Shown: positions 2,520 through 34,110, counted from the stretch's first letter. The stretch is 64,000 bases of DNA from Calditrichales bacterium (GCA_965267575.1 OZ254086.1:1088001-1152000), one strand, 5' to 3'. Numbers and translations: made by a program. Notes: generated by a model not told the origin, from the sequence alone.

Positions 2520-3935
2520 TCACGGGAAAATACCCAGCTGCTCGTAGGATTTAGCCACCTTTTCCAGGGAACAAATAAACGCCGCAATGCGCATATCGAT
2601 GTTCTCTTTGGCGTGCTTGCGCTTAATTTCGTCAATCTGCAGGTAGGCATTTACCATCGTTTCTTCCAGGCCGGAAAAAACAAGCTCCTTTTCATCCGCC
2701 CCGACGGCGATTTCGCTGAAAACTTTCTGGTCCAGTTTTTTGCCGGTAAGCTTTTCCATAGCCTGCAGAATCTTCTTGTTACTATCCTCTTCAAAACGAC
2801 GGCTCATGCGGCCAAAACGCACGTGGGACAAATTTTTCAGCCATTCAAAATAAGAGACTGTCACACCGCCGGCATTTAAGTAAAGGTCGGGGATCACCAG
2901 CACGTTCTTCTCAGCCAGGTAGTTACTGGCATCGGCCGTTATGGGACCGTTCGCTGCCTCGCCGATAATCTTTGCTTTTATATTTTTCACATTGTCCATG
3001 GTAATCTGGTTTTCCAGCGCCGCCGGTATCAGGATATCACATTCCATCTCCAGGGCGTTTTTGGAAGGCTCTATATTCCTGGCTCCGGGAAAATTCAATA
3101 TTGATTCATTTTCCCTGCGGTGCTCCATCACCTCATCCACATCCAGGCCCTTCTCGCTATAGATGGCCCCTTCGTATTCAGCCAGGCAAACGATTTTAGC
3201 GCCACCTTCCTGGCAATATTTTGCGGCATGATAGCCCACGTTCCCGAGGCCCTGCACGATAACACGCTTGCCTTCCATGCCGGGCTTAAGGCCCAATTTT
3301 TTCATTTCGTCTTTTTGATTGCATGCCTCGCGGATGCCGAAAAATACCCCCTTACCGGTTGCTTCGGTGCGGCCGCGCACACCGCCCTGAGACAACGGTT
3401 TGGCCGTCACGCAAGCCAGGGCGTCCAGCGAATCATTGGTCAGCGACATATAGGTGTCGGCGATCCAGGCCATCTCGCGGGAGCTTGTACCGAAGTCAGG
3501 CGCCGGCACATCCACGCCCGGTCCGATGAAGTTTTTTTTGACCAGCTCAAAGGTGAACCGGCGCGTCAGGCGTTCCAGCTCGGCGTCTGAGTATTTCCAT
3601 TTTTGAATTTTTACGCCCCCTTTGGCTCCGCCGAAAGGTACATCGACAATCGCGCACTTATAGGTCATCAGCGAGGAGAGCGCCTTCACTTCGTCTTCGG
3701 TAACATTACCGGCGTAGCGGATACCTCCTTTGCCGGGCAGCTTGTGGTGCGAATGTTCCGCACGCCAGGCTTCTACCACTTCAATGCTGCCGTCATCTTT
3801 TTTAAGGGGAAAAGAAAAGTGGCAAACCGTATTAACCATCTTGATCTGCTTAAGAAGACCGGCGGGATACTTTGTGAAGCTGCTGGCCCTATCAAACGAT
3901 TTGTTTACTTCCTTAAAAAAACTGATCTTAGACAT
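2520..3935 (-). CDS. gdhA: Glu/Leu/Phe/Val dehydrogenase (glutamate dehydrogenase)
   Basis: [52 protein letters not shown]. Confidence 0.95.
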
Positions 3936-4063: not shown

Positions 4064-4390
4064 ATGGTGTTTAAGCGCGATTGGATGAAAGCGGTATGGG
4101 CCATCGCCGGAATGATTCCGCCGGGCAAGGTGATGACCTATGGCTCGATATCGGCTTTGCTGCCCGGTGTTACGGCGCGTATGGTGGGCGCGGCCATGGC
4201 TGCCTGTCCGGAGGATGGGGACATTCCCTGGTGGCGGGTAATCAACAGCCAGGGCAAGATCAGCCCAAGGCCGTCCGGACACCAGCACCTGCAGCGCAAC
4301 CTGCTGGAGGAAGAAGGATTGATCTTTTCTGCCGGAGGCCGGGTTGGCCTGCAGCGCTACCTGTTCAGGCCGCCAGACACACCAGCGTAA
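4064..4390 (+). CDS. MGMT-family alkyltransferase-like protein (ATL/YbaZ type)
   Basis: IPPGKVMTYG, ARMVG, PWWRVIN. Trp replaces the active-site Cys, as in ATL proteins. Confidence 0.88.
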   Translation: MVFKRDWMKAVWAIAGMIPPGKVMTYGSISALLPGVTARMVGAAMAACPEDGDIPWWRVINSQGKISPRPSGHQHLQRNLLEEEGLIFSAGGRVGLQRYLFRPPDTPA

Positions 4391-5270
4391 AGACTATATA
4401 TTCAATAAAGAAAAGCTTCCAGACAAACTGGTAAAAGGCCGTCATTTCTTTAGGATTTTCGGCTTGCAAACTTTTGCCGCGCAGCCAGAACCACAGTGCC
4501 AGCAGCAGATGGGCGATCGCCATGCTCCAGGGTTCCACGCCCGGCAGACCCGCCACCGCAAAAACCGCCAATAAAAGATATCCGCCGATTATAATCGTTT
4601 TGCCCCAGCTGAAAACCCGCTCCGCGCCAACCCGCAACGACAACGATCCGATTGAAAAGCGCTTGTCTCCGCGCATATCCGGGATATCCTTGAACCAGGC
4701 GATAACAACGCTTTGGCCAAACATAAAAACGGTCAGCAAAATAATTTTTAAAGGCAGGCCCTGCGTTGTTCCGTAGATGTGCTGGAAATGCAAAAACAGA
4801 AAAATGTTGACCAGCAGGCCGCGCACAGCAAGGATGCAAAAGGCTGCCCAAAAATGGAATCGTTTTAGGCGCACCGGAGGCAGCGAGTAAAGCGTGCCCA
4901 GAAGCAGGCTGCCAAACACCGTAATCATCAACCAGGCGCTTTGCAGCAGTGCCGTAATGATGGAAACGGCCAGCGCGCTGAAAATGATGATCCAGCCGCC
5001 GCGAATGGTGATGGCACCCGAAGCCAGCGGCAACCCGGGTTTGTTTATTTTATCGATTTCCACATCCGAAAGCTGGTTTAGGCCAACGATATAAATGTTT
5101 GCCCCCCAGCAGGAAACCAACGCCAGCAATAGCCCGCTAATGGCTTGCAGCGGATTTGCTGTAAACTGCGTATGGTCCCAGGCAATCACAGCCAGCGCGC
5201 TGACGCTGAGCGTGGTGCCAATAATCGTATGGGGGCGCGAAAAGGCCCACAGGTGACGCAGAAAGGTCAT
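4365..5270 (-). CDS. Homogentisate phytyl/prenyltransferase (UbiA superfamily, VTE2/HPT-like)
   Basis: FSRPHTIIGT, NIYIVGLNQLSDVEIDKINKPGLPLASG, FKDIPDMRGDK and FYQFVWKLFFIEY closely match plant and cyanobacterial HPT motifs. Start at ATG 5270, overlapping the upstream stop (ATGA). Confidence 0.9.
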   Translation of the reverse strand: MTFLRHLWAFSRPHTIIGTTLSVSALAVIAWDHTQFTANPLQAISGLLLALVSCWGANIYIVGLNQLSDVEIDKINKPGLPLASGAITIRGGWIIIFSALAVSIITALLQSAWLMITVFGSLLLGTLYSLPPVRLKRFHFWAAFCILAVRGLLVNIFLFLHFQHIYGTTQGLPLKIILLTVFMFGQSVVIAWFKDIPDMRGDKRFSIGSLSLRVGAERVFSWGKTIIIGGYLLLAVFAVAGLPGVEPWSMAIAHLLLALWFWLRGKSLQAENPKEMTAFYQFVWKLFFIEYIVFTLVCLAA

Positions 5271-6106
5271 GGTTTTTGCCCGCTTAGTACGACAAATCGA
5301 ATCAATCCCTGCTTGTAGCCTTTTATCATGCGTCGCACTGTAAGCGCGGCGAACAGCGCTTCCCTGCCGGCGGCAAGCGTGGCAACGATGCTTTTGGGCT
5401 TGAGGATAATACGCCATAACTGCTTCCAGAAAGGGGCTACGAACTCTGTCCAGTCGGCGTGTTTCAGATTAACAAAACCGGCCCTTTCGGCAGCGGCGGC
5501 CAGCATGCTTCCGCTGACCCATCGTGGCAGGTGGAAATGACGGTTGATTTTCTCAAGCAGCTTTTTTTCATCGCCGCTCAGCGTATCGCTGGTTTCTTTA
5601 TGGCACCAGGTGGCGCAGGCAAAGTGTCCGCCGGGCTGAAGCAGGTTGAAAAAAGTGCTGAACAGCGCGTCCTTATCGGGAGCATGCTCTGCGCTTTCCA
5701 TGGACCAGATAAAATCGAAACTGTTGTCTGGAAGCGGTGGCCGGGTCATGTCGGCCCGGAGAAATCGGCATGACTTTTCTACCTTGTTCTGTCGCGCCAG
5801 CTGTCCGGCGCGCCGGGCCTGCCGGGGGCTGAGTGTTAACCCAATGGTTCGCACCGACGGCCATTTTTCTTTGAGATAAAAGCTGCTGCCGCCGATACCA
5901 CATCCGGCATCAAGAATATGCTTCGGGCTGTTTTCGATTCCGGCAAAGGTCAGCAACTCTTCGATCATGCGCACCTGTGCGAGGATGGGATCTTTGTGCT
6001 GCCCGTTATAATAACCGTGATGCATATGTATGCCCCACTGGCTCTCCCACAAGGCCGAGGAACGATCGTAAAAGCGGGCGATATTACTGTTTAGCGAAGA
6101 AGCCAT
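5267..6106 (-). CDS. Gamma-tocopherol methyltransferase-like SAM-dependent methyltransferase (VTE4-like)
   Basis: IARFYDRSSALWESQWGIHMHHGYY, ILDAGCGIGGS, FDFIWSMESAEHAPDK, ATWCHK. Confidence 0.85.
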   Translation of the reverse strand: MASSLNSNIARFYDRSSALWESQWGIHMHHGYYNGQHKDPILAQVRMIEELLTFAGIENSPKHILDAGCGIGGSSFYLKEKWPSVRTIGLTLSPRQARRAGQLARQNKVEKSCRFLRADMTRPPLPDNSFDFIWSMESAEHAPDKDALFSTFFNLLQPGGHFACATWCHKETSDTLSGDEKKLLEKINRHFHLPRWVSGSMLAAAAERAGFVNLKHADWTEFVAPFWKQLWRIILKPKSIVATLAAGREALFAALTVRRMIKGYKQGLIRFVVLSGQKP

Positions 6107-6972
6107 AGACCTGCCGAGATGAGCAAGATGATCAGTGCGGAGAGAAATACGATCTGCTTGCGGTTGAACAGCTTAACACCGCGCAGTTCGGGACGCGTGA
6201 AACGCGCCCACACAGAGTAAACTACTGCTGCCGGTATAAACAATCCACCAAAAAGCGAACCAATAAAGAAGCGCAACCAGCCGGAAACACCCAGCTTGCT
6301 TGGCATCTCAGCAGGCGCTTTGGGGACAGTGGTTGATGCCGGTTTTCGGCCGCTAAGGGCAATGCCATATTTCTCATGGCGTATCCAGGGCGGGGCCACA
6401 TATTTTTTCTCGATGGATTCAAAGCCGGCCTCGCGGAACCACTGCTCGTACTCGTCTTCGGCGGGGAACAGCATCCAGACGCGGGCCACAAAACGGGCCA
6501 GCTTTTGGCGCGGCTCCAGCGGACCTATCATCAGCGCGGTGCCACCGGGTTTTACTACGCGCAGGGATTCACGGATGCCACGGGCCGGGTCGGGCCAGTA
6601 TTCGATGCTGCCCGCGGAAACGTAGCAATCAAAGGTGTTATCGGGGAAGGGCAGGTTTTCAGCATCACCGCGGGTGAAAGCCACGTTTTTCAGTTGCGGC
6701 TTTTTGATTGCTTTAGACATCTGGTGCGGGCTCTGGTCCATCCCGAAAACGCGTGCCGCCGGCAGCTTTTCGACGACGCCGCCGGTGGTAAAACCGGTGC
6801 CACAGCCCACATCAACAATCCGGGCCTCATCGGCATTCGGCGGATTAAGCAGGCTCAGGGCCTGGCTACGCATCTCCTCCGTCCAGAAAAAGGGATTGAC
6901 GTAATTATCATAAAAGCGCGAAAGGAAGCTGTAAAACCAAAAGGCCGCTTTTTTGTTTTGCACGTATCGCAT
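6091..6972 (-). CDS. Plant-type MPBQ/MSBQ methyltransferase (VTE3-like)
   Basis: QNKKAAFWFYSFLSRFYD..VNP..WTEEMR, VDVGCGTGFTT, DQSPHQM, GDAENLPFP, YVSAGSIEYWPDP.RGIRE, VWMLFP.E.EY..WF, plus C-terminal hydrophobic segments. Confidence 0.88.
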   Translation of the reverse strand: MRYVQNKKAAFWFYSFLSRFYDNYVNPFFWTEEMRSQALSLLNPPNADEARIVDVGCGTGFTTGGVVEKLPAARVFGMDQSPHQMSKAIKKPQLKNVAFTRGDAENLPFPDNTFDCYVSAGSIEYWPDPARGIRESLRVVKPGGTALMIGPLEPRQKLARFVARVWMLFPAEDEYEQWFREAGFESIEKKYVAPPWIRHEKYGIALSGRKPASTTVPKAPAEMPSKLGVSGWLRFFIGSLFGGLFIPAAVVYSVWARFTRPELRGVKLFNRKQIVFLSALIILLISAGLWLLR

Positions 6973-7024
6973 GGGGGTCTACCTGCCAGTTTAAGAATGA
7001 TTGATCAGCTTAACGCATGCTTTA

Positions 7025-7162
7025 GGAACCCATCCCCAAATCCCTTCCCTAAATTTTAGGGAAGGGACTTTTTCCGGTTGTCGTTATTCTGGTATTTATC
7101 AACAAAACGCCGTTTTTCTCCCCTTCCATTGGAACAAGGGAAGGGGCCGGGGGATGGGTTCA
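7025..7162. repeat. Paired palindromic REP-like element between VTE1 and VTE3
   Basis: GAACCCATCCCC...TCCCTTCCCTAAATTTTAGGGAAGGGA and CCCCTTCC...GGAAGGGG...GGGGATGGGTTC. Outer inverted repeat enclosing two hairpins. Confidence 0.7.
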
Positions 7163-7169
7163 ATATTTC

Positions 7170-8153
7170 TCAAATCACTTCCAAACCTTTATAATCCCCA
7201 ACGATCTCCGCGCCGCCGTGGCTGCTTTTATCTTTGAGTACGAGCCGGTCGTTTTTCCACAGGTGGATGGAAATATATCCATTAAGACACTCATCAATCT
7301 CCCGCAACATGCCTTTTTCCGTGGGTGCTTTCAGGATCGCGCTCTTGCCCGTTTCGGCGCGGAGCTGTAAACGATAGTGCTCGTTGATCAATTCCATCTC
7401 GATGACAGGCGGGTTCGTCACAAGCCGTTGGATGCGCGATTTGTTGTAGGTGGTGAATTGGATCAGCCCGTCGTCGGGTGTAAGCAGTCCGGCAATAAAG
7501 CCGTTAAAGTCGCCGCGTATCCAGGGCACATGGGCCACGGAGACAAACAGGCTAAGCGGCTGCACGCTGAAGTGATTGGCCTGCAGCCAGATCCAGTTGC
7601 GCGGGAAGGCTTTGCCCCAGTCTTTCTCGATGTAGCCGCGGCCTTTTTCAAAGTTCAGGGTTTTGCCGTTTTCAACCAGTTCGCCGTCCACAACATGATC
7701 CATGCTGACCACACCGTGATAGCACTGCATAAAGGGCATCCAGGCATACCAGCCCATGCAGCCGGGTGAACGCACACTGGACGGCCAGCGCTTGTTGCCG
7801 GAAAAGGTAAGCGAACCGTTCATGCTCCAGTCATCATCCTGCAGGTCCAGGTAGATAAAACCTTCAGTGAAACGATTGGGTCCGATGCTGATATCCAGCG
7901 ACGTGCCGTAGGAGCGGAAGTCGCCCGCGTCAAAGCGGATATAGCGGCTTTTGTTTTTTGCACCATCCAGGATTTGGATAAACGCTTCGCTGTACTCTTC
8001 GGCTGGACTTTTATAAATACCGGGGATTATAGCCAGGCTGTGACCGTTTTGGGCATCGACGCATTTGTAATACCAACCTTCAAAAAAGGGGCCGCTCTCC
8101 TTTTTACCGTGGTAGCCTGCGGGCTTAAGGATACCTTTTATGTGTTGCAGCAT
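7170..8153 (-). CDS. Tocopherol cyclase family protein (VTE1-like)
   Basis: GYHG...FFEGWYYK, GCMGWYAWMPFMQCYHGVVSMDH, GRGYIEKDWGKAFPRNWIWLQAN. Confidence 0.87.
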   Translation of the reverse strand: MLQHIKGILKPAGYHGKKESGPFFEGWYYKCVDAQNGHSLAIIPGIYKSPAEEYSEAFIQILDGAKNKSRYIRFDAGDFRSYGTSLDISIGPNRFTEGFIYLDLQDDDWSMNGSLTFSGNKRWPSSVRSPGCMGWYAWMPFMQCYHGVVSMDHVVDGELVENGKTLNFEKGRGYIEKDWGKAFPRNWIWLQANHFSVQPLSLFVSVAHVPWIRGDFNGFIAGLLTPDDGLIQFTTYNKSRIQRLVTNPPVIEMELINEHYRLQLRAETGKSAILKAPTEKGMLREIDECLNGYISIHLWKNDRLVLKDKSSHGGAEIVGDYKGLEVI

Positions 8154-8183
8154 GGATGAAATATAGGGAAAAAATTCCGCAAT

Positions 8184-8636
8184 TTAGCCTGCGGGAATCT
8201 TGTTTACCAAAACCTTTTCTTTTGATATTTGAATATTAAACCGGTGGCCTTGTATCTCGAAATCGAACGAATGATCTTTCTGCCACTTAATGAATTTAAG
8301 TCCCGATAACTCTCCTTCAAGTGAAAACTCTTTTGCAAACTGCATCATGTCAAACTGCTTGATATATTCAATTTTTTTGCAGCATCCCTCTTGCCCATAA
8401 GTAACTTTCTCAAAATACATCGAGTCATAGATTTCGGAAGTAGTTACAATAACTCTAAATGCAAATGATGTAACTTCCTCCTTTGTTTGCATTTTGAGCC
8501 AAATAGGCTCGCTTTCGCTAAGAAATGTTATCCATGGATAAATATCAGGTTGTGAAACGTCTTTAGTGTCTATCCATATCGATTGAGAATAGCAATTTAT
8601 TGTTAATATAGTGATAAATAGAAAAATTCTTTTCAT
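8184..8636 (-). CDS. Hypothetical secreted protein (AT-rich)
   Basis: Signal-peptide-like N-terminus and a 150 aa ORF; no family recognised. Confidence 0.6.
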   Translation of the reverse strand: MKRIFLFITILTINCYSQSIWIDTKDVSQPDIYPWITFLSESEPIWLKMQTKEEVTSFAFRVIVTTSEIYDSMYFEKVTYGQEGCCKKIEYIKQFDMMQFAKEFSLEGELSGLKFIKWQKDHSFDFEIQGHRFNIQISKEKVLVNKIPAG

Positions 8637-33284: not shown

Positions 33285-33359
33285 GGGCGCTTAGCTCAGC
33301 TGGTCTAGAGCACCTGCCTTACAAGCAGGGGGTCACTGGTTCGAATCCAGTAGCGCCCA
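33285..33359 (+). tRNA. tRNA-Val(TAC)
   Basis: Acceptor GGGCGCT/AGCGCCC, D-arm, anticodon arm CCTGC-CTTACAA-GCAGG, T-arm ACTGG-TTCGAAT-CCAGT. CCA is not encoded. Confidence 0.95.
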
Positions 33360-33408
33360 CACCAAACCCCGGTCCAATGGTGCCGGGGTTTTTTATTTTG
33401 GAGGATGT

Positions 33409-33657
33409 ATGTACTGGACCTACGTCATATACTCCCCATCTCATGATATCTTCTATATCGGCCAAACCAATAATCTGCAAGACCGCCTGCTGCGCCACAA
33501 CCAAAACAGAAATAAATACACAAAAGGCAAAGGACCCTGGCAGCTCTTTTTCTCTAAAGCCTTTGATACACGAGCGGAAGCAGTGCAACTGGAGCAAAAA
33601 CTAAAACGCTACAAAAACAAAGACTACCTAAAGGAGCGCTTGGCTGACCTGGTCTAG
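33409..33657 (+). CDS. Small GIY-YIG nuclease family protein (copy 1)
   Basis: YVIY...FYIGQTNNL..RL.RHN...YTK.KGPW.L...A..LE..LK; GGAGG RBS. Confidence 0.87.
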   Translation: MYWTYVIYSPSHDIFYIGQTNNLQDRLLRHNQNRNKYTKGKGPWQLFFSKAFDTRAEAVQLEQKLKRYKNKDYLKERLADLV

Positions 33658-33759
33658 GGCATCCCGATTACTATCGGGAGGGCCACCTGGTTCGAATCCA
33701 GTAGCGCCCACACCAAACCCCGGTCAAATGGTGCCGGGGTTTTTTAGTTTGGAGGATGT

Positions 33760-34008
33760 ATGTACTGGACCTACGTCATATACTCCCCTTCTCATGATAT
33801 CTTCTACATCGGCCAAACCAATAATCTGCAAGACCGCCTGCTGCGCCACAACCAAAACAGAAATAAATACACAAAAGGCAAAGGACCCTGGCAGCTCTTT
33901 TTCTCAAAAGCCTTTGATACACGAGCGGAAGCAGTGCAACTGGAGCAAAAACTAAAACGCTACAAAAACAAAGACTACCTGAAGGAGCGCTTGGCTGAGC
34001 TGGTCTAG
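33760..34008 (+). CDS. Small GIY-YIG nuclease family protein (copy 2)
   Basis: Differs from copy 1 by one residue (D to E near the C-terminus). Confidence 0.87.
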   Translation: MYWTYVIYSPSHDIFYIGQTNNLQDRLLRHNQNRNKYTKGKGPWQLFFSKAFDTRAEAVQLEQKLKRYKNKDYLKERLAELV

Positions 34009-34110
34009 GGCATCCCGATTACTAACGGGAGGGCCACCTGGTTCGAATCCAGTAGCGCCCACACCAAACCCCGGTCCAATGGTGCCGGGGTTTTTTATTT
34101 TGGAGGATGT

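Follow-up and report, generated by a model that had tools for sequence, protein, structure and literature searches.

A candidate tocochromanol operon with a non-canonical cyclase in a non-phototrophic member of the Calditrichota

Introduction

Can a bacterium that does not photosynthesize carry a vitamin E-type pathway of its own? The question is raised by four adjacent genes, encoding a tocopherol-cyclase-like protein, two methyltransferases and a homogentisate prenyltransferase, in the genome of a Calditrichales bacterium (GCA_965267575.1). We analyzed a stretch of 64,000 nucleotides of this genome (OZ254086.1:1088001-1152000), hereafter the window, in which the four genes take up positions 4365 to 8153. 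A first-pass annotation made from the sequence alone had described them as an apparent tocopherol biosynthesis operon in a probably non-photosynthetic bacterium.

In the sections cited here, reviews attribute tocochromanols to photosynthetic organisms only (PMC9515888, PMC5745509, PMC6602966), and a 2026 review mentions non-photosynthetic bacteria solely as engineered hosts (cited sections of PMC13084219). As described in those sections, Albermann et al. (2008) engineered a delta-tocotrienol pathway in E. coli with HPPD, a source of geranylgeranyl diphosphate (GGPP), homogentisate prenyltransferase (HPT) and a cyclase. Tocopherol cyclase-like proteins were described in heterotrophic bacteria by Gabruk et al. 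(2016), who, in the sections cited, left their function open and highlighted a Y-x-EK-x-WG motif in true cyclases (PMC4963081). The origin of methylated phytyl-chromans (MTTCs) is still debated, according to the cited part of PMC8280644. Our literature search, which left subscription journals mostly uncovered so that a prior report is possible, turned up neither an account of such an operon nor a record of tocopherol in these taxa. Public pipelines already name many of the homologues, and the genes are thus labelled in databases, though without discussion in the literature that we searched.

We think it probable, though by no means assured, that the four genes form a working tocochromanol pathway that uses a non-canonical cyclase and is native to this host. 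What is new here is the non-phototrophic host, the operon arrangement and the non-canonical cyclase, for a pathway that is itself known.

Results

Gene order and coupling in the cluster

All four genes lie on the minus strand in the order cyclase-like gene (TC), first methyltransferase (MT1), second methyltransferase (MT2) and HPT, as the first-pass annotation had read them, and both the open reading frame (ORF) coordinates and the family calls agree with this order. The features of the cluster are as follows (positions in the window; aa, amino acids; MPBQ, 2-methyl-6-phytyl-benzoquinol; MSBQ, 2-methyl-6-solanesyl-benzoquinol; REP, repetitive extragenic palindrome):

7170..8153, minus: TC, tocopherol-cyclase-family gene of the bacterial subfamily, 327 aa, putative chromanol-ring cyclase
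6973..7169, minus: TC-MT1 spacer of 197 bp with REP-like palindromic repeat units (blastn and predicted fold)
6091..6972, minus: MT1, candidate plant-type (VTE3-like) MPBQ/MSBQ methyltransferase, 293 aa, with a hydrophobic C-terminal tail
5267..6106, minus: MT2, gamma-tocopherol-methyltransferase-family enzyme, 279 aa
4365..5270, minus: HPT, homogentisate prenyltransferase (HPT/VTE2 type) of the UbiA family, 301 aa

The overlaps reported earlier among the last three genes were confirmed, at 16 bp for MT1/MT2 and 4 bp (ATGA) for MT2/HPT. Translational coupling, which had been proposed from these overlaps, holds for MT1, MT2 and HPT but does not extend to TC, because the 197-bp REP-bearing spacer lies between TC and the other three genes. 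Parts of this spacer gave 16 further blastn matches in the genome, its RNA is predicted to fold at -72.9 kcal/mol, and no T-tailed terminator was found on its transcribed strand. A terminator-like hairpin is present just upstream of TC (8194..8177, minus). HPT can also be read as a 350-aa ORF starting at 5417; this form is unsupported, and we preferred the 301-aa start because alignments with homologues begin at residue 1-2 of the shorter form.

We compared the four genes with 2065 long ORFs of the genome and found their GC content and their GC content at third codon positions (GC3) at the 62nd-90th percentile. The composition of the cluster is therefore not atypical, and composition gave no signal of recent transfer.

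HPT and the two methyltransferases

HPT scored 356 bits against the NCBIfam homogentisate phytyltransferase equivalog (NF009525, cut-off 226), a margin of 130 bits. The runner-up model was chlorophyll synthase (66.9 bits against a cut-off of 313), and no other UbiA model came near its own cut-off. The protein contains N65 Q66 D69 D73 and K194 D195 P197 D198 G201 D202, all invariant across 36 aligned HPT relatives; these match NQxxDxxxD and KDxPDxxGD, the patterns of the UbiA-type Asp-rich motifs. HPT is 47% identical to a protein labelled Oscillatoria HPT and 46% identical to the HPT that adjoins a canonical cyclase at a metagenome locus (L192), and it keeps 73 of its 75 family-conserved positions, defined for each protein as those at least 95% conserved among its relatives. 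Its substrates would be homogentisate and a C20 prenyl diphosphate, as the HPPD and geranylgeranyl reductase genes within or next to the cluster in other genomes indirectly suggest.

We found 2906 HPT relatives (E ≤ 1e-20), with source labels that include Rhodothermales, Aliifodinibius, Saprospiraceae, Tectomicrobia, Chloroflexota, Calditrichaeota and one Oscillatoria metagenome-assembled genome (MAG). An independent contig from a metagenome (P0002) carries an HPT 95% identical to that of the window. Phyla are intermixed in the HPT tree, where the window HPT and this metagenome protein share a long stem that falls outside the main clade of Calditrichota clusters; such a tree would fit lateral spread, the direction of which it does not give. 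A plasmid collection searched for a named HPT reference yielded none, and the control cyanobacterium genome gave no match over cut-off to HPT or to the cyclase family.

MT1 and MT2 are both class I S-adenosylmethionine methyltransferases, and neither matched an NCBIfam model over its cut-off (MT1 reached 68.9 bits against MenG/UbiE, cut-off 158). Both full-length similarity and placement in the family tree put MT2 in the gamma-tocopherol methyltransferase family. At 99-100% query cover, the plant proteins listed among the matches of MT2 are 39-43% identical to it, and some of these plant proteins bear the name gamma-tocopherol or tocopherol O-methyltransferase; for cyanobacterial homologues the identity is 42-47%. 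A tree built from 40 sequences has the plants in one clade and the cyanobacteria in another that falls among heterotroph copies, with the window MT2 on a long branch; the protein keeps 56 of 58 family-conserved positions. MT1 has a Methyltransf_11 / UbiE-type domain, keeps 92 of 98 family-conserved positions and aligns over 69% of its length with a Trifolium protein at 50% identity, and many of its homologues bear the Joint Genome Institute (JGI) name "MPBQ/MSBQ methyltransferase." The VTE2- and VTE4-like assignments first given to HPT and MT2 hold at the family level, and the VTE3-like assignment of MT1 probably does.

TC, a distant relative of tocopherol cyclases

TC belongs to the tocopherol cyclase superfamily, with 97.7 bits against PF14249 (Tocopherol_cycl, cut-off 26.6). 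The match is confined to profile positions 142-335, the C-terminal half, and no NCBIfam model matched the protein. By comparison, the canonical cyclases found beside HPT at two metagenome loci (L189 and L192) scored 511 bits over PF14249 positions 2-335 in the Pfam scan; the canonical sequences used for comparison came from such metagenome contigs. TC showed neither the full PF14249 match nor the orthologue-level similarity of the canonical clade. The regions that it has in common with the canonical cyclase are GYH..FFEGWY, Y-x-EK-D/N-WG and PTEKG. Within its own family, Y174 E176 K177 D178 W179 G180 are invariant in 40 relatives, and TC has lost none of its 54 family-conserved positions.

The structure predicted for TC by AlphaFold (predicted local distance difference test score 94.8) was searched with Foldseek and matched an AttH / kievitone-hydratase-like fold (PDB 2ich, 7a0t, 7e5t, 7e5u and 6kaw; E 1e-10 to 3e-9), with TM-scores of 0.48-0.57 to the AttH, kievitone hydratase and Fsa2-Phm7-CghA structures. 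A search of the PDB for a tocopherol cyclase structure found none. This fold serves chemistry on prenyl or polyene double bonds, so it is compatible with ring closure, though no proof of it. Kievitone hydratase, as its name indicates, adds water to a prenyl double bond, and by analogy its chemistry may be related to the proton-initiated ring closure that we propose.

At least 575 bacterial relatives of TC were found (one genome per species), mostly in Anaerolineae, Calditrichia, KSB1, Flavobacteriaceae and others. In the plasmid collection, cyclase-family genes occurred only in records labelled with Bacillota genera. We looked for a conserved partner of the stand-alone TC-like genes among 143 neighboring ORFs of 36 loci and found none. 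In two MAGs, a non-HPT UbiA prenyltransferase lies immediately upstream of a TC-like gene (L005, 5035-6966; L013, 4883-6975); these TC-like genes are near the window TC in the tree, and the arrangement could be another pair of prenyl-aromatic enzyme and cyclase. An Anaerolinea MAG (L053, 4503-6948) has a stand-alone TC-like gene with heliorhodopsin encoded two genes upstream of it.

Phototrophy genes and precursor supply in the host

The host genome is closed in one contig, 4,732,520 bp long (GC 49.6%), and is 98.2% complete with 0.1% contamination. We searched it for the reaction centre families PF00124 and PF00223 and for BchH (TIGR02025) and found no match, while the control cyanobacterium was detected each time. 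PF01040 matches occur at nine places. Neither HPT nor any of the six full-length UbiA paralogues (heme o synthase, MenA, two GGGP-synthase-like, one DPPR-transferase-like and one unassigned) reached the cut-off for chlorophyll synthase, in a scan that left out a partial pair at 2.17 Mb. The host is a non-phototrophic member of the Calditrichota, in agreement with the first-pass annotation, and the chimeric or cyanobacterial contig that might have explained the cluster away was not seen (closed genome, typical composition, no phototrophy genes). The Calditrichota are a sediment phylum and belong to the Fibrobacterota-Chlorobiota-Bacteroidota (FCB) group.

HPPD is encoded elsewhere in the host genome (448 bits, cut-off 277). 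It looks catabolic, serving tyrosine breakdown, because an FAA hydrolase adjoins it and a weak HmgA-like match lies close by. The genome also has four genes of the geranylgeranyl (GG) reductase superfamily.

As a separate observation, these four GG-reductase-family genes and the two GGGP-synthase-like UbiA paralogues are found at 2.17-2.19, 2.50 and 3.36 Mb; two of the reductase-family genes lie less than 4 kb apart, near a split UbiA-like gene. This set hints at further isoprenoid-lipid chemistry in the host.

The cluster in other genomes and metagenomes

HPT was found over cut-off in 18 of 86 Calditrichota genomes. The genome of the window is the only carrier among the 39 genomes of its order, with 0/9 in the rest of its family and 0/29 in the rest of the order. 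The other 17 carriers come from the same class but from two different families, f7 (13/16 genomes) and f8 (4/17). Seven of these 17 have the full order TC-MT1-MT2-HPT; four have MT1-MT2-HPT without TC in the stretch examined, two of which are cut close to MT1; in two the contig ends after MT2-HPT; and four have HPT alone. The order MT1-MT2-HPT is thus common to 11 other Calditrichota genomes, with the cyclase just upstream in 7 of them, and together with a Latescibacterota genome described below they show that the synteny noted in the window recurs elsewhere. In three Calditrichota carriers a GG reductase (GGR) gene directly follows HPT. The solitary HPT genes of family f8 (L122, L129, L131 and L102), which lack MT1, MT2 and TC, form their own clade, and this clade groups with a sequence labelled cyanobacterial (SH-aLRT 87).

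We compared the presence of the cyclase family and of HPPD in genomes with and without HPT. The TC family was present in 14/18 HPT-positive and 12/68 HPT-negative Calditrichota genomes, and HPPD in 16/18 and 21/68, respectively; these contrasts are descriptive rather than statistical, since the genomes are kin and not independent.

Outside the Calditrichota, a Latescibacterota chromosome, the sole HPT carrier of 168 genomes of that phylum, holds a six-gene cluster in the order GGR-HPPD-TC-MT1-MT2-HPT (L011, 3340-9632), in which GGR and HPPD both exceed their NCBIfam cut-offs. With precursor and core steps side by side, this cluster is the strongest argument for homogentisate and a reduced C20 tail as substrates. 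In the Bacteroidota, HPT was found in 3 of 401 sampled genomes. The HPT match in one of these, a closed genome (G218, C1:1663998-1664897, L140), contains two in-frame TAA codons and may be a pseudogene or reflect sequence errors.

We also examined 80 metagenome HPT loci, many of them on short contigs, so that the counts of gene sets are lower bounds. HPT stood alone at 46 loci, with MT2 at 23 and with GGR at 4; MT1-MT2-HPT was present at 5, of which 3 had GGR and 1 a window-type TC; and GGR with MT2 and HPT, and an HPPD-like gene with MT2 and HPT, occurred at 1 locus each. At one locus (L172) the cyclase lies directly upstream of the core. At three loci a distant TC-like match comes directly after HPT, and two of these matches proved to be canonical tocopherol cyclases (L192, 3791-8278; L189, 7983-10040); at L192 there is, in addition, an MT2-like gene upstream and an HPPD-like gene in divergent orientation. 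The first-pass annotation noted that the genes are typically scattered in cyanobacteria; outside the window they are not scattered in every case, as HPT and cyclase are adjacent at L189 and L192, and Synechocystis slr1736 and slr1737 are adjacent as well. Finally, source labels assign homologues to cultured species of Saprospirales type, namely Flavilitoribacter nigricans, Phaeodactylibacter luteus and Lewinella sp. W8.

Flanking genes and other features of the window

The cluster is bounded downstream by an Ogt-like gene (4064..4390, plus), which is convergent with HPT and shares 26 bp with its 3' end. The encoded Ogt/Atl-like protein of 108 aa consists of the DNA-binding domain of 6-O-methylguanine DNA methyltransferase alone. 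A glutamate dehydrogenase gene that flanks the cluster (2520-3935, minus) is a second, divergent copy in the genome. In relatives from the host family, the glutamate dehydrogenase homologue is 38-40% identical and matches the host's other copy at 2.20 Mb; the flanking gene thus has no orthologue there, so synteny with these relatives could not reveal an empty site. Directly upstream of the cluster is a 150-aa ORF (8184-8636, minus) with a GC content of 34% and a GC3 of 35%, against genome means of 51% and 58%; a Pfam scan of this ORF gave no match, and it may be a recent insertion. At 33285-34062 (plus), ARAGORN called a tRNA-Val and two tRNA-like genes about 350 bp apart, with calls of 2-base and 4-base anticodon loops; Rfam supports only the first.

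Discussion

The gene content of the locus suggests how such a pathway could run. If the genes are expressed, they would encode a membrane-associated route to methylated tocochromanols of a tocopherol- or tocotrienol-like kind. HPPD, from tyrosine breakdown, would supply homogentisate, and HPT would couple it, releasing CO2, to a C20 prenyl diphosphate. To the resulting 2-methyl-6-prenyl-benzoquinol MT1, as a candidate enzyme of VTE3 type, would add the second ring methyl. The TC-like protein may then protonate the first side-chain double bond, so that the phenolic oxygen would close the chromanol ring, and MT2, being of gamma-tocopherol methyltransferase (gamma-TMT) type, would add the last methyl. 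MT1, MT2 and HPT would be translationally coupled, with TC just upstream across the REP-like spacer. The tail may be phytyl or geranylgeranyl, because none of the host's genes is closely related to the reductase that accompanies the cluster in other genomes, and the product might serve as a membrane antioxidant.

TC is the weak link of this pathway, and a number of our results weigh against the reading. TC, first described as VTE1-like, is not an orthologue of the canonical cyclase: it is 24% identical to the canonical cyclase over nearly its full length, as befits a remote, paralogue-level relative, a branch of length ~10 parts canonical from bacterial TC-like proteins in the tree, and the family occurs mostly without HPT. 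MT1, MT2 and HPT are beside TC in only 3 of the best 80 of at least 575 loci, and HPT is missing in 9/9 examined genomes with a stand-alone TC copy. The neighborhoods of stand-alone copies are heterogeneous, a few adjoining carotenoid genes, another UbiA enzyme, peroxiredoxin or heliorhodopsin. The tree does not show a single clade of HPT-linked cyclases, and just 1/80 metagenome HPT loci has a window-type cyclase. Apart from TC, MT2 may match either cyanobacterial gamma-TMT or the cyanobacterial MPBQ-methyltransferase paralogue; cyanobacteria use the gamma-TMT paralogue sll0418 as their MPBQ methyltransferase. The host reductases are only 24-29% identical to the cluster-linked reductase of other genomes. 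The stem that carries the window HPT, the MT2 branch and the TC branch are all unusually long.

The main rival makes use of the looser attachment of TC. MT1-MT2-HPT would then be a conserved unit that makes an uncyclised methylated phytyl- or geranylgeranyl-benzoquinol or -quinone, that is, a plastoquinone-like (short-tailed) or tocopherolquinone-like lipid acting as electron carrier or antioxidant, and TC would work separately on some other isoprenoid substrate. We judge this unlikely but well worth keeping in view, as the three overlapping genes form an invariant core from which the REP-bearing 197-bp spacer sets TC apart, the TC-like family is widespread without HPT, and no gene of the cyclase family is seen anywhere in 4 of the 18 HPT-positive Calditrichota genomes. 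The core is also unlinked from the cyclase in one Calditrichota genome (G068, with the cyclase-family gene on another contig) and in the closed Bacteroidota genome G218, where TC lies 1.9 Mb away from MT1-MT2-HPT. Both genomes nevertheless still carry the cyclase, and TC is directly upstream of the core in 7 other Calditrichota genomes, the Latescibacterota cluster and L172. The family is also much commoner in HPT-positive than in HPT-negative relatives (14/18 versus 12/68), and the host already has MenA for menaquinone.

The remaining explanations seem to us less probable still. The same families could act on another acceptor or tail, such as a longer polyprenyl chain or a different aromatic acid, and yield a specialized prenylated metabolite unrelated to vitamin E. 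Substrate specificity is unreadable from sequence, MT1, MT2 and TC lack a curated model, the window proteins sit on long branches, and the UbiA and cyclase-like pairs of L005 and L013 involve no HPT; but the HPT equivalog score is well over its cut-off, HPPD lies inside the Latescibacterota cluster and is enriched in HPT-positive genomes, and GG reductase is linked in several genomes, and we therefore regard this explanation as improbable. A decaying or silent remnant of lateral transfer that yields no product would agree with the long branches and with the position of the host as the sole HPT carrier of 39 genomes in its order. This explanation is very improbable, given that all four frames are intact, that 275/285 family-conserved positions are kept across the four proteins, that an independent contig from a metagenome carries a 95%-identical HPT, that composition is fully adapted to the genome and that translational coupling is preserved. 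For an artefact, in the form of a chimeric contig or a host that is a cyanobacterium or other phototroph, we found no supporting point, and the idea is hardly credible for a single closed contig of the stated completeness and contamination, with a composition typical of its genome, the same cluster in relatives of the same class, and reaction centres, BchH and chlorophyll synthase not found.

We return to the working pathway with a non-canonical cyclase. Its extension beyond this host is something that we propose more tentatively, as a possibility we would not yet call probable: that non-phototrophs among the Calditrichota, scattered Bacteroidota, Latescibacterota and others natively make vitamin E-type chromanols by means of a cyclase recruited from the large AttH-like family of bacteria and not the canonical VTE1. 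If true, the rule confining tocochromanols to photosynthetic organisms would no longer hold, the widespread tocopherol cyclase-like family with its at least 575 bacterial relatives would gain a first assigned substrate, and there would be a bacterial source of the vitamin E of sediments and marine particles, possibly also of MTTCs. It would add a native, compact and laterally mobile cluster to the evolution of the pathway, in which three enzymes are at orthologue level to those of plants or cyanobacteria and a distant relative stands in for the cyclase. It would also offer biotechnology ready-made bacterial tocochromanol operons without transit peptides.

Comparison with known systems

The closest known system is the tocopherol pathway of cyanobacteria and plastids (HPT/VTE2, MPBQ methyltransferase/VTE3, cyclase/VTE1 and gamma-TMT/VTE4). 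The cluster draws on the same four enzyme families, with HPT at orthologue-level similarity (46-47% identity), MT2 at 39-47% and HPPD as the homogentisate source. It differs in that its host lacks photosynthesis genes, in its remote cyclase with 24% identity and a partial Pfam match, and in having all four genes in one locus with three of them translationally coupled; unlike cyanobacteria, it has a candidate MPBQ methyltransferase of plant type.

In its predicted double beta-barrel fold, TC resembles AttH, kievitone hydratase and the Fsa2-Phm7-CghA group, none of which is a chromanol cyclase and with which it has a sequence identity of 9-14%. By sequence, TC belongs with the bacterial cyclase-like proteins of Gabruk et al. 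and keeps both the Y-x-EK-x-WG motif and the FP-x-W-x-W-x-Q-x-N-x-F region; linkage to HPT and methyltransferases does not appear in the sections cited of that study (PMC4963081), and in our data some members of the family are physically linked to a complete prenylquinol pathway. Finally, the engineered E. coli described in the cited sections of PMC13084219 is likewise a non-photosynthetic bacterium and indicates that such a gene set suffices for tocochromanol in a heterotroph. That set was assembled artificially from phototroph genes, whereas the comparable set in this genome is native and includes both methyltransferases.

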